A stretch of 64,000 bases of DNA from Escherichia coli (GCF_003334305.1 NZ_QOWS01000001.1), one strand, 5' to 3'. Counted from the first letter of the stretch, positions 21,268 to 46,703 are shown. The notes: generated from the letters alone by a model not told the origin. Numbers and translations: made by a program.

Positions 21268-22263
21268 ATGAACGATAACGTTTTGCTCATAGGAGCTTCC
21301 GGATTCGTAGGAACCCGACTACTTGAAACGGCAATTGCTGACTTTAATATCAAGAACCTGGACAAACAGCAGAGCCATTTTTATCCAGAAATTACACAGA
21401 TTGGCGATGTTCGCGATCAACAGGCACTCGACCAGGCGTTAGCTGGTTTTGACACTGTTGTACTGCTGGCAGCGGAACATCGCGATGATGTCAGCCCTAC
21501 TTCTCTCTATTATGATGTCAATGTTCAGGGTACCCGCAACGTGCTGGCAGCCATGGAAAAAAATGGCGTTAAAAATATCATCTTTACCAGTTCCGTTGCT
21601 GTTTATGGTTTGAACAAACACAATCCTGACGAAAACCATCCACACGATCCTTTCAACCACTACGGCAAAAGTAAGTGGCAGGCAGAGGAAGTGCTGCGTG
21701 AATGGTATAACAAAGCACCAACAGAACGTTCATTAACTATCATCCGTCCTACCGTTATCTTCGGTGAACGCAACCGCGGTAACGTCTATAACTTGCTGAA
21801 ACAGATCGCTGGCGGCAAGTTTATGATGGTGGGTGCAGGAACTAACTATAAGTCCATGGCTTATGTTGGAAACATTGTTGAGTTTATCAAGTACAAACTG
21901 AAGAATGTTGCCGCAGGTTATGAGGTTTATAACTACGTTGATAAGCCAGATCTGAACATGAACCAGTTGGTTGCGGAAGTTGAACAAAGCCTGAACAAAA
22001 AGATCCCTTCTATGCACTTGCCTTACCCACTAGGAATGCTGGGTGGATATTGCTTTGATATCCTGAGCAAAATTACGGGCAAAAAATACGCAGTCAGCTC
22101 TGTGCGCGTGAAAAAATTCTGCGCAACAACACAGTTTGACGCAACGAAAGTGCATTCTTCAGGTTTTGTGGCACCGTATACGCTGTCGCAAGGTCTGGAT
22201 CGAACTCTGCAGTATGAATTCGTCCATGCCAAAAAAGACGACATAACGTTTGTTTCTGAGTAA
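21268..22263 (+). CDS. gne: NAD-dependent UDP-N-acetylglucosamine 4-epimerase (Gne-type) encoded immediately upstream of galF
   Basis: 331 aa ORF, N-terminal GASGFVGTRLLE Rossmann motif, SDR epimerase family; position between wcaM and galF as in GalNAc-containing E. coli O types (from memory). Confidence 0.7.
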   Translation: MNDNVLLIGASGFVGTRLLETAIADFNIKNLDKQQSHFYPEITQIGDVRDQQALDQALAGFDTVVLLAAEHRDDVSPTSLYYDVNVQGTRNVLAAMEKNGVKNIIFTSSVAVYGLNKHNPDENHPHDPFNHYGKSKWQAEEVLREWYNKAPTERSLTIIRPTVIFGERNRGNVYNLLKQIAGGKFMMVGAGTNYKSMAYVGNIVEFIKYKLKNVAAGYEVYNYVDKPDLNMNQLVAEVEQSLNKKIPSMHLPYPLGMLGGYCFDILSKITGKKYAVSSVRVKKFCATTQFDATKVHSSGFVAPYTLSQGLDRTLQYEFVHAKKDDITFVSE

Positions 22264-22319
22264 TGCAGGCGAGTCAGAGAAAAAAGGACCAGGTTGGACT
22301 ACGATTATTCGGAAAGAGG

Positions 22320-22339
22320 TACTGATTAAATTATCAGTA
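22320..22339. promoter_or_regulatory. 20-bp palindrome TACTGATTAAATTATCAGTA (CTG-N10-CAG), LexA-box-like, in gne-galF intergenic region
   Basis: Read directly; arms TACTGAT / ATCAGTA. Confidence 0.3.
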
Positions 22340-22505
22340 TGCGGAATTCCGAGTAATCCGAGTAACCCAGATGCTGATGGTGTGTAGTGTTATCGTAAGG
22401 TTTAATCAAAGTTATGCGGAACTAAGCTTTGGTATATAGCCATAACGTTTGGCTAACCAATGGCAATAATTTACGCACTATCAGCCACTTAGAGGTAGGA
22501 AAAGA

Positions 22506-23399
22506 ATGACGAATTTAAAAGCAGTTATACCGGTAGCAGGTCTTGGGATGCATATGTTGCCTGCCACTAAGGCGATTCCCAAAGAGATGCTACCGATCGT
22601 CGACAAGCCAATGATTCAGTACATTGTTGACGAGATTGTGGCTGCAGGGATCAAAGAAATCCTCCTGGTAACTCACGCGTCCAAGAACGCGGTCGAAAAC
22701 CACTTCGACACCTCTTATGAATTAGAATCTCTCCTTGAACAGCGCGTGAAGCGTCAACTGCTGGCGGAAGTGCAGTCGATCTGTCCACCGGGAGTGACCA
22801 TTATGAACGTGCGTCAGGGCGAACCTTTAGGTTTGGGCCACTCCATTTTGTGTGCGCGACCTGCCATTGGTGACAACCCATTTGTCGTGGTACTGCCAGA
22901 CGTAGTGATCGACGACGCCAGCGCCGACCCGCTGCGCTACAACCTAGCTGCCATGATTGCGCGCTTCAATGAAACGGGACGCAGCCAGGTGCTGGCAAAA
23001 CGTATGCCGGGTGATCTCTCTGAATACTCCGTCATTCAGACCAAAGAACCGCTGGATCGCGAAGGTAAAGTCAGCCGCATTGTTGAATTCATCGAAAAAC
23101 CGGATCAGCCACAAACGCTGGACTCAGACATCATGGCCGTTGGTCGCTATGTGCTTTCTGCCGATATTTGGCCGGAACTTGAACGCACTCAACCTGGTGC
23201 ATGGGGGCGTATTCAACTGACTGATGCCATTGCTGAACTGGCGAAAAAACAGTCCGTTGATGCAATGCTGATGACTGGTGAAAGCTACGACTGCGGTAAA
23301 AAAATGGGCTATATGCAGGCGTTTGTGAAGTATGGCTTACGCAACCTGAAAGAAGGGGCGAAGTTCCGTAAAGGGATTGAGAAGCTGTTAAGCGAATAA
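22506..23399 (+). CDS. galF: UTP-glucose-1-phosphate uridylyltransferase paralogue GalF
   Basis: 297 aa ORF, nucleotidyltransferase fold, flanks O-antigen locus. Confidence 0.95.
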
Positions 23400-44369: not shown

Positions 44370-44432
44370 AAATATCTCTCTTGTATTTTTTGCCTTTGAA
44401 TACAAGAGGGGTTAGATAATGTGTCATTTATT

Positions 44433-45578
44433 ATGAAAATTATTTTTGCTACTGAGCCAATTAAATACCCATTAACGGGCATCGGTCGGTATTCCCTGGA
44501 GCTGGTTAAGCGGCTGGCGGTCGCCCGCGAAATTGAAGAATTAAAGCTATTTCACGGTGCGTCGTTTATAGAACAGATCCCTTTGGTGGAGAATAAAAGC
44601 GATACCAAAGCCAGCAATCATGGTCGTCTGTCGGCGTTTCTACGCCGACAGACGCTGTTGATTGAGGCTTATCGCTTGCTGCATCCGCGGCGCCAGGCGT
44701 GGGCATTGCGCGACTATAAGGATTATATCTACCATGGCCCCAATTTTTATCTGCCGCATAAACTGGAACGCGCCGTGACCACGTTTCATGACATATCCAT
44801 TTTTACCTGCCCGGAATATCATCCAAAAGATCGGGTTCGCTATATGGAGAAGTCCCTGCATGAGAGTCTGGATTCGGCAAAGCTGATCCTGACCGTTTCT
44901 GATTTCTCGCGCAGTGAAATTATCCGCTTGTTCAACTATCCGGAGGAGCGGATCGTAACCACCAAGCTAGCCTGCAGCAGTGACTATATCCCACGCAGCC
45001 CGGCAGAGTGTCTGCCGGTACTGCAGAAATATCAGCTGGCGTGGCAGGCCTACGCGCTATATATCGGCACTATGGAGCCACGTAAAAATATCCGAGGCCT
45101 GCTGCATGCCTATCAGCTGCTACCGATGGAGATCCGCATGCGCTATCCGCTAATCCTTAGCGGCTATCGCGGCTGGGAAGACGATGTGCTGTGGCAGTTA
45201 GTCGAGCTCGGTACTCGGGAAGGCTGGATCCGTTACCTCGGATATGTTCCGGATGAAGACCTGCCGTATCTGTACGCAGCGGCCAGAGTCTTTGTTTATC
45301 CCTCCTTCTACGAGGGATTCGGTTTACCTATTCTTGAAGCGATGTCTTGCGGTGTGCCGGTAGTATGCTCCAATGTCACCTCTTTGCCTGAGGTTGTTGG
45401 CGATGCCGGCCTCGTTGCCGATCCTAATGATATAGACGCGATTAGCGCGCAAATTTTGCAGAGCCTGCAAGATGATAGCTGGCGGGAAATCGCCACCGCG
45501 CGCGGTCTTGCTCAGGCGAAACAGTTTTCGTGGGAGAACTGTGCGACACAGACCATTAACGCCTATAAATTACTCTAA
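44433..45578 (+). CDS. wbdB: Mannosyltransferase WbdB (GT4)
   Basis: 381 aa from MKIIFATEP (ORF track starts at upstream GTG 44421); GT4 motif EGFGLPILEAMSCGVPVV. Confidence 0.7.
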   Translation: MKIIFATEPIKYPLTGIGRYSLELVKRLAVAREIEELKLFHGASFIEQIPLVENKSDTKASNHGRLSAFLRRQTLLIEAYRLLHPRRQAWALRDYKDYIYHGPNFYLPHKLERAVTTFHDISIFTCPEYHPKDRVRYMEKSLHESLDSAKLILTVSDFSRSEIIRLFNYPEERIVTTKLACSSDYIPRSPAECLPVLQKYQLAWQAYALYIGTMEPRKNIRGLLHAYQLLPMEIRMRYPLILSGYRGWEDDVLWQLVELGTREGWIRYLGYVPDEDLPYLYAAARVFVYPSFYEGFGLPILEAMSCGVPVVCSNVTSLPEVVGDAGLVADPNDIDAISAQILQSLQDDSWREIATARGLAQAKQFSWENCATQTINAYKLL

Positions 45579-45587
45579 GGGTGTCAG

Positions 45588-46703
45588 TTGAGAGTTCTAC
45601 ACGTCTATAAGACTTACTATCCCGATACCTACGGCGGTATTGAGCAGGTAATTTATCAGCTAAGTCAGGGCTGCGCCCGCCGGGGAATCGCAGCCGATGT
45701 TTTCACTTTTAGCCCGGACAAAGATACAGGTCCTGTCGCTTACGAAGATCATCGGGTCATTTATAATAAACAGCTTTTTGAAATTGCCTCCACGCCGTTT
45801 TCGCTGAAAGCGTTAAAGCGTTTTAAGCTGATTAAAGATGACTACGATATCATCAACTACCATTTTCCGTTTCCCTTTATGGATATGCTGCATCTTTCGG
45901 CGCGGCCTGACGCCAGGACTGTGGTGACCTATCACTCTGATATAGTGAAACAAAAACGGTTAATGAAGCTGTACCAGCCGCTGCAGGAGCGATTTCTCAG
46001 CGGCGTAGATTGCATCGTTGCCTCGTCGCCCAATTATGTGGCTTCCAGCCAGACCCTGAAAAAATATCTGGATAAAACGGTGGTGATCCCGTTTGGTCTG
46101 GAACAGCAGGACGTGCAGCACGATCCGCAGAGGGTCGCGCACTGGCGGGAAACTGTCGGCGATAAGTTCTTTCTCTTCGTCGGCACTTTCCGCTACTACA
46201 AAGGGCTGCATATTCTGATGGATGCCGCTGAGCGTAGCCGACTGCCAGTGGTGGTTGTAGGGGGCGGGCCGCTGGAATCGGAAGTGCGGCGTGAAGCGCA
46301 GCAGCGCGGGCTGAGCAATGTGATGTTTACCGGCATGCTCAACGACGAAGATAAGTACATTCTCTTCCAGCTCTGCCGGGGCGTGGTATTCCCCTCGCAT
46401 CTGCGCTCTGAGGCGTTTGGTATTACGTTATTGGAAGGCGCACGCTTCGCAAGGCCACTGATCTCTTGTGAGATTGGTACAGGTACCTCTTTCATTAACC
46501 AGGACAAAGTGAGTGGTTGCGTGATTCCGCCGAATGATAGCCAGGCGCTGGTGGAGGCGATGAATGAGCTCTGGAATAACGAGGAAACCTCCAACCGCTA
46601 TGGCGAAAACTCGCGTCGTCGTTTTGAAGAGATGTTTACTGCCGACCATATGATTGACGCCTATGTCAATCTCTACACTACATTGCTGGAAAGCAAATCC
46701 TGA
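45588..46703 (+). CDS. wbdC: Mannosyltransferase WbdC (GT4), TTG start as given by ORF track
   Basis: 371 aa; GT4 C-terminal domain (SEAFGITLLEGARFARPLIS); start codon uncertain. Confidence 0.7.
   Translation: MRVLHVYKTYYPDTYGGIEQVIYQLSQGCARRGIAADVFTFSPDKDTGPVAYEDHRVIYNKQLFEIASTPFSLKALKRFKLIKDDYDIINYHFPFPFMDMLHLSARPDARTVVTYHSDIVKQKRLMKLYQPLQERFLSGVDCIVASSPNYVASSQTLKKYLDKTVVIPFGLEQQDVQHDPQRVAHWRETVGDKFFLFVGTFRYYKGLHILMDAAERSRLPVVVVGGGPLESEVRREAQQRGLSNVMFTGMLNDEDKYILFQLCRGVVFPSHLRSEAFGITLLEGARFARPLISCEIGTGTSFINQDKVSGCVIPPNDSQALVEAMNELWNNEETSNRYGENSRRRFEEMFTADHMIDAYVNLYTTLLESKS

Follow-up and report, generated by a model that had tools for sequence, protein, structure and literature searches.

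A stretch of 64,000 nucleotides from Escherichia coli (GCF_003334305.1, NZ_QOWS01000001.1), referred to below as the window and numbered from its first letter, appears to be the wca-his chromosomal region of a serogroup O8 strain. Three polysaccharide systems lie there in series: the colanic acid genes, a Wzx/Wzy-dependent cassette of the O46/O134 family between galF and gnd, and an ATP-binding cassette (ABC)-transporter-dependent polymannose locus of the O8 type between wzzB and hisIE. A probability of about 0.85 is assigned to this explanation as a whole. The listing of open reading frames (ORFs) and the composition place the window in the wca-his region, where the ORFs form a co-linear array on the plus strand. 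The order is wcaA-wcaM, gnu, galF, JUMPStart/ops, the six-gene cassette, gnd-ugd-wzzB, a spacer with a second ops element, manCB-wzm-wzt-wbdDABC, and hisIE (Table 1). The original prediction, made from the sequence alone, had described a Wzx/Wzy-dependent cluster at galF-gnd and an ABC-transporter polymannose cluster between wzz and hisI, each with its own ops element, within positions 21268–46703. This span begins at the first base of a gnu/gne-type epimerase ORF and ends with the stop codon of wbdC. All three parts of that description were borne out: wzx and wzy of the O46/O134 family are present in the first cluster, the second encodes WbdA, WbdD and Wzt with O8-type domains, and the two ops elements lie at 23685–23692 and 34534–34541.

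Gene content of the two clusters

To judge from the proteins it encodes, the ABC-transporter locus is of the O8 type. It extends from manC (34623) to wbdC (46703), between wzzB, which ends at 33482, and hisIE, and not at galF-gnd; the gnd-hisI interval is the site of the O8 and O9 O-antigen clusters (PMC7685785, citing Kido 1995, Amor & Whitfield 1997 and Sugiyama 1998). O8 is distinguished from O9/O9a by three WbdA modules, as against two in O9a, and by a WbdD that only methylates (Liu et al. review, PMC7685785). The WbdA of the window has GT4/GT1 glycosyltransferase modules at residues 18–391, 478–818 and 901–1181, approximately (Pfam). Its WbdD consists of 425 residues, with a methyltransferase domain at 39–142 and weak coiled-coil-type matches at 230–340; no kinase domain was found in a Pfam search of this protein. 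Wzt combines the Pfam ABC_tran domain with a C-terminal Wzt_C domain, which binds the glycan cap (E 1.5e-38). The window contains two manC/manB pairs, the colanic cpsB/cpsG (11100–14099) and that of the O8 locus (34623–37438). The proteins are only 61.5% and 75.3% identical between the pairs, and the DNA 63–70%.

The cassette consists of six ORFs of low G+C content between 23707 and 29419 (0.30). The G+C content is 0.58 in manCB and 0.48 in wzm-wbdC, and the region is therefore of mosaic origin. When 5,426 complete E. coli genomes were searched by megablast with positions 23400–29537, the full cassette was recovered from 17. RefSeq names wzx as O46/O134 family in all 17 and wzy in 16. Over 6.1 kb, the identity is 97.3–100% to 16 of these genomes and 95.9% to the 17th, SCU-485, in which ORFs are split and hypothetical proteins are annotated in the wzy region. 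Genomes with a 100% identical cassette carry the O46/O134 family names for wzx and wzy, which are also attached to the exact protein sequences in the protein collection. The UniProt entries that share these exact sequences presumably stem from a reference O-antigen gene cluster (O-AGC) set, as guessed from the accession series. The cassette also falls within the grouping rule of Iguchi 2015, which is a DNA identity of wzx/wzy of at least 95–97% (PMC4379981). By names and identities, the cassette is the Wzx/Wzy-dependent O46/O134 O-antigen cluster.

The O46 and O134 antigens both contain D-glucuronoyl-D-allothreonine, according to the title of Perepelov 2015. The presence of an amidoligase gene and of ugd is consistent with a polymer of this kind, which the cassette may specify. 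Among the database entries, a fragment of the amidoligase bears the label 'Escherichia coli O8:H21', so that at least one carrier has been called O8. A further gene probably belongs functionally with the cassette, and might point to a GalNAc-initiated repeat unit: the gnu-type epimerase gene between wcaM and galF occurs together with the cassette, in the window and in strain NCTC11121, and is absent from the other O8 genomes inspected (R1, 673 and EC45), where wcaM is adjoined directly by galF.

The first ops element (GGCGGTAG) stands 15 nt before the first cassette gene, within a JUMPStart-like 39-mer; 10 nt separate the 39-mer from that gene. Both leader elements have the coding-strand orientation and lie in the untranslated leaders of their clusters, as expected by sequence for control by RfaH. 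The 8-mer occurs five times in the window, with 1.27 expected. Since the other three exact copies, all on the plus strand (1373–1380 in wzc, 10860–10867 in wcaI and 62989–62996 in ORF 62702–63175), sit inside ORFs, the argument is one of position and not of count; these three copies are probably due to chance. Terminators made of a hairpin and a T-tract are found 3' of gnd and ugd, and similar terminator-like structures can be read from the sequence after wzzB (around 33487–33535) and after the ORF of the spacer (around 34371–34405). With such structures at these four places, the O8 locus is likely a transcription unit of its own.

The original prediction had considered that one of the clusters might be inactivated. 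Within the window, none of the 14 genes that make up the two clusters is disrupted. These genes are annotated in RefSeq as intact coding sequences (CDS) without pseudogene flags in E. coli DETEC-E601, a genome 99.99% identical to the window (100% over 1–10783; 99.992%, or 4 mismatches, over 10506–58703). For galF, gnd, ugd, wzzB, manC, manB and the subunits of the ABC exporter, NCBIfam scores reach at least the curated cut-offs where equivalogs exist.

Distribution of the tandem and its boundaries

The O8-specific part of the locus (wzm-wbdC) was found at a coverage of at least 80% in 302 of the 5,426 genomes, and the whole tandem, 24.2 kb from galF to wbdC, in eight, at 99.6–100% identity. 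The eight genomes are from unrelated sources, including a sink in China, an orangutan, an echidna, a goat (Shiga toxin-producing E. coli) and a human. The next-best matches all account for 76% of the query, split into galF and gnd-to-wbdC with 6–11 kb of unrelated DNA in between. In three of these that were inspected, the O8 genomes R1, 673 and EC45, a different Wzx/Wzy cluster stands in the order wcaM-galF-cluster-gnd-ugd-wzzB-O8 locus-hisIE. As other clusters occupy the same slot in these genomes, the tandem layout is taken to be the normal state of O8 strains, which usually carry it and differ only in the occupant of galF-gnd. In some O8 strains, for example EC45 (NZ_CP059125.1; 4115–5302 of the extracted stretch), the wzx at galF-gnd is named 'O8 family O-antigen flippase' by RefSeq. 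This name could mislead automated typing, since the O8 mannan is exported by Wzm/Wzt. A literature search for published serotypes of the eight tandem genomes, NCTC11121 and NCTC9966 returned none, with one unrelated mention.

In NCTC11121, the cassette is the only O-antigen locus; there is no O8 locus, and wzzB abuts hisIE. Gene by gene, the cassette of the window is 99.65–99.92% identical to that of NCTC11121, with zero to two amino-acid changes and no stops. The flanking genes are less similar: 95.8% for galF, 96.2% for gnd, 96.9% for ugd and 92.0% for wzzB, the most divergent, with 21 amino-acid changes. A near-identical cassette between divergent flanks, across O8 and non-O8 backgrounds, is read as the clear footprint of a recent transfer, and the cassette would thus be mobile.

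The comparison with NCTC11121 also delimits the O8 locus. Homology ends at 33546 of the window and restarts at 46782, which indicates an insertion of 13.2 kb whose right end falls within the final ~40 nt of hisIE. The left edge is marked by a degenerate relic of that gene's 3' end, with 26 of 45 residues identical to HisIE residues 158–202 (tblastn, E 4e-6) and a nucleotide identity of 83.6% over 67 nt. The junctions and the relic are consistent with the history of lateral transfer from Klebsiella given in PMC7685785. The spacer between wzzB and manC measures 1.14 kb. It is present at a coverage of at least 80% in 238 genomes, and its 3' part, in a diverged form (~83%), in many more. Two mechanically called ORFs in the spacer were rejected as cluster genes. 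The first (33486–33869, plus strand) is spurious and overlaps the relic on the minus strand. The second (34041–34349) is a conserved hypothetical ORF without a family match; an NCBIfam search of its 94-residue form gave no match.

Upstream, the window starts inside wzc, so that the completeness of the wca operon, which had been claimed in the original prediction, cannot be demonstrated from the window alone. What stands is that wcaA-wcaM are intact; that the operon is complete is deduced from DETEC-E601. In that genome, wzc starts 118 nt upstream of what is position 1 of the window, which places wza, wzb and the wca promoter and ops outside the window; wza-wzb-wzc are found upstream, and wza is itself preceded by an ops at a distance of 183 nt. 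Immediately past the his leader, a yefM-yoeB type II toxin–antitoxin pair (around 54251–54753, from the annotation of the identical genome) is placed as in K-12 and is ordinary.

Table 1. Features of the wca-his region in the window (nt, nucleotides; aa, amino acids; SDR, short-chain dehydrogenase/reductase; GlcA, glucuronic acid).
Feature	Position	Strand	Basis
wzc (colanic acid tyrosine kinase), 5' end lost at window edge	18–2045	+	ORF; 100% identical to DETEC-E601
wcaA-wcaB-wcaC-wcaD-wcaE-wcaF-gmd-fcl-gmm-wcaI-cpsB-cpsG-wcaJ-wzxC-wcaK-wcaL-wcaM, all intact	2223–21110	+	ORF lengths equal to RefSeq CDS of near-identical genome
gnu/gne-type SDR 4-epimerase, 331 aa	21268–22263	+	SDR epimerase matches; RefSeq name GlcNAc-PP-Und 4-epimerase
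galF	22506–23399	+	TIGR01105, 688 bits, above cutoff
JUMPStart-like 39-mer CAGTGCTCTGGTAGCTGTAAAGCCAGGGGCGGTAGCTTG with ops GGCGGTAG (23685–23692)	23658–23696	+	Sequence search
ATP-grasp (TupA-like) amidoligase, candidate for amidating GlcA with an amino acid (putative function)	23707–24552	+	Pfam PF14305 (ATPgrasp_TupA), E 1e-31; RefSeq name
wzx, O46/O134 family flippase	24554–25855	+	Pfam Polysacc_synt; RefSeq name at 100% identity
GT2 glycosyltransferase	25857–26762	+	Family search
wzy, O46/O134 family polymerase	26759–27898	+	Weak TIGR04370 match; RefSeq name for exact sequence
GT14 (Core-2/I-branching type, 'Branch') glycosyltransferase	27855–28688	+	Pfam PF02485, E 9e-26
GT2 glycosyltransferase (TuaG-like)	28691–29419	+	Family search
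gnd	29538–30944	+	NCBIfam; followed by strong terminator-like hairpin at 30971–30997
ugd, UDP-glucose 6-dehydrogenase (supplies UDP-GlcA)	31193–32359	+	NF011631, 827 bits
wzzB chain-length determinant, intact	32505–33482	+	NF012015, 595 bits
Degenerate hisIE 3'-end relic, left edge of O8 insertion	33682–33816	-	tblastn
Conserved hypothetical ORF, 94 aa, in wzzB-manC spacer	34065–34349	+	RefSeq CDS in all O8 genomes inspected (WP_000088887.1 / WP_000088884.1)
Second ops (GGCGGTAGCGTA), 81 nt upstream of manC ATG	34534–34541	+	Sequence search
manC and manB (GDP-mannose supply)	34623–37438	+	TIGR01479, 741 bits; NF011943, 853 bits; G+C 0.58
wzm and wzt, O8 family ABC exporter	37440–39448	+	NCBIfam Wzm/KpsM-type permease; named 'O8 family' in RefSeq (100% identity)
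wbdD (O8 type), methyltransferase-only chain terminator	39448–40725	+	Pfam; role from PMC7685785
wbdA (O8 type), serotype-defining polymerising mannosyltransferase, 1213 aa	40728–44369	+	Three GT4 modules, Pfam
wbdB and wbdC (adaptor mannosyltransferases)	44433–46703	+	GT4 matches; RefSeq wbdC name
hisIE, right-hand boundary; his operon on minus strand starts here	46742–47350	-	ORF listing, RefSeq annotation

Polymers predicted from the two loci

Gene content and precedent suggest that the strain makes both polymers. Each of the two clusters would form a separate operon whose transcription depends on RfaH and ops. For the O8 mannan, WbdC, WbdB and WbdA would assemble the chain on undecaprenyl (Und)-PP-GlcNAc in the cytoplasm; the methyl cap added by WbdD would end the chain and set its length, and recognition of the cap by Wzt_C would lead to export by Wzm/Wzt (PMC7685785). 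For the cassette, Wzx would flip the repeat units, Wzy would polymerise them and WzzB would impose a modal length (PMC7685785), with help from gnu upstream and ugd downstream. WaaL would ligate both polymers to lipid A-core, the form in which short K chains are linked (PMC3791409), and long Wzy-dependent chains could leave the cell through GfcE/Etk and form a group 4 ('O-antigen') capsule (PMC11494523). An action of Wzz on the Wzy-dependent polymer only, as originally predicted, appears to agree with the published model, in which Wzz sets the chain length in the Wzy pathway and the WbdD of O8 ends the mannan by methylation (PMC7685785).

The original prediction had also compared the strain with group 4 capsule strains, and had called for a check of group 1 genes. 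Group 1 loci have the order galF-wzi-wza-wzb-wzc-wbaP and replace colanic acid, which is compatible with group 4 (PMC6128206). No wzi, wza, wzb, wzc or wbaP was found in the galF-gnd interval, which holds only six genes, and the wza-wzb-wzc of DETEC-E601 sit upstream of the wca genes. A group 1 capsule was therefore rejected: with no such module at galF-gnd and with the wca genes present, the region fits group 4, as does the presence of a Wzy-dependent cluster at galF-gnd together with the colanic acid genes and a separate O locus. The ligase and export functions that both polymers would need were found in DETEC-E601, both outside the window. That genome has an intact gene for an 'O-antigen ligase family protein' in an R1-like waa locus, and a complete, uninterrupted gfcABCDE-etp-etk operon (17521–25235 of the extracted stretch). 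In MG1655, an insertion sequence, IS1, lies in the gfc promoter region (PMC6128206). In DETEC-E601, only 441 bp separate gfcA from cspH, which leaves no IS1 of the K-12 kind there, and no insertion sequence is annotated between the two genes. The group 4 export machinery is thus potentially functional in carriers of the locus.

Several points weigh against the proposed reading. The full JUMPStart context is missing around the second ops, whose last bases are GCGTA, as against GCTTG in the first. A scan of the region for promoter-like sites gave 48, with 43.8 expected, and so no enrichment; it was not used as evidence. No paper was found that describes O8 paired with an O46/O134-type cassette. 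Finally, waaL, gfc and wza-wzb were inspected in a near-identical genome, outside the window itself.

Of the alternatives, the one that survives best is that the Wzy-dependent polymer is solely a second O antigen linked to lipid A-core (K_LPS), without a capsule, the gfc genes being unexpressed or unused. A capsule needs the expression of gfcABCDE-etp-etk, and short lipid A-linked K chains are a documented form (PMC3791409); with the operon complete in the 99.99% identical genome and no K-12-type IS1 in the 441 bp between gfcA and cspH, this outcome is held to be rather unlikely. It is less probable still, and distinctly so, that both loci are intact and only one polymer is displayed, the other being silent or out-competed for Und-P or WaaL, so that the strain would be serologically plain O8 or plain O46/O134 and the second locus a passenger. 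In favour of this, a carrier of the amidoligase is labelled O8:H21, and group 4 capsule (G4C) loci are widespread but possibly cryptic (PMC6128206). Against this stand the intactness of 14 of 14 genes and an ops for each cluster. The tandem is also conserved at 99.6–100% in eight genomes from a range of hosts, of which the one inspected carries no pseudogene annotation, and the cassette is unbroken in the two genomes compared, one with O8 and one lacking it. That the tandem is an assembly chimera of the O-antigen regions of two strains, as the sharp changes in G+C content from 0.30 (cassette) to 0.58 (manCB) might suggest, can be dismissed, as the same contiguous 24.2 kb occurs in eight independent complete genomes, R1, 673 and EC45 have the same architecture with other cassettes, and such mosaicism is normal for O-antigen loci.

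In an O8 background, the cassette may specify a K antigen (K_LPS/group 4 capsule) that the literature has not linked to this locus; the polymer would be an acidic, K40-like heteropolymer in which GlcA is amidated with an amino acid. The odds on this identification are put at even. One mobile cassette would then determine an 'O antigen' in certain lineages and a 'K antigen' elsewhere. In silico typing of carriers would yield two O types (O8 and O46/O134), and the carriers would possibly cross-react with O46 or O134 sera. As two full sets of O-type markers are present (wzm/wzt of O8 and wzx/wzy of O46/O134), ambiguous or double calls can come from sequence-based serotypers, and predictions of vaccine targets or phage receptors that consider one 'O type' alone would overlook one of the two surface polymers. 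The cassette as sole O antigen, in NCTC11121, and as second polymer forms a clean natural pair, usable for studies of competition for Und-P, WaaL and Wzz.

Comparison with known systems

The tandem architecture of O8 strains is already known; it was described in 1997 for O8:K40, and the sequences are in RefSeq with appropriate names. The only particular feature here is the identity of the cassette in the galF-gnd slot. The finding has little discovery value, and its practical relevance lies in typing. The original interpretation corresponds to the model that Amor & Whitfield 1997 published for O8:K40, a group IB (now group 4) system, and appears supported by it. As far as O8:K40 is described where Amor & Whitfield 1997 is cited (PMC7685785, PMC3791409), it shares with the window the colanic genes, a Wzx/Wzy K cluster at galF-gnd, gnd-ugd-wzz and a his-linked O8 mannan cluster. 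The likeness is one of layout and not of compared sequences: the cassette of the window is named O46/O134 family, for which the polymer is given as carrying D-glucuronoyl-D-allothreonine, and has three glycosyltransferases, and no K40-labelled members were found among the protein-cluster matches of the cassette proteins. The K40 cluster comprises six ORFs, and the product of the first attaches L-serine to GlcA; the K polymer is the one on which wzz acts. In the O8:K40 model strain, both polymers are produced side by side, which speaks against the display of only one.

The O46/O134 cluster (Gp of Iguchi 2015; DebRoy 2016, PMC4732683) has the same six genes as the window cassette, in the same order and position. 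The window cassette is 99.7% identical to those of NCTC11121 and NCTC9966 and 97.3–97.5% to a second allele group. In O46/O134 strains, the cassette is the sole O-antigen locus and wzzB adjoins hisIE, whereas in the window it stands beside O8 and would by convention be called a K antigen or second lipopolysaccharide (LPS). O9a:K30 (strain E69) also combines a his-linked ABC-transporter mannan O locus with a Wzy-dependent K locus upstream of gnd. It differs from the window in its group 1 module, which replaces colanic acid; the window has the wca genes and no such module at galF-gnd. A precedent for one polymer as O or K antigen, depending on the background, is K9 = O104, according to the title of Kogan et al. 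1992, although sugar chemistry and genes are others. The rfb locus of Klebsiella pneumoniae O5 specifies a mannan identical to that of O8; the loci are highly conserved, and the position adjacent to hisI is the normal one in Klebsiella (PMC7685785). In contrast, the locus of the window forms part of an E. coli chromosome, where it follows wzzB and has the relic of hisIE at its left junction.

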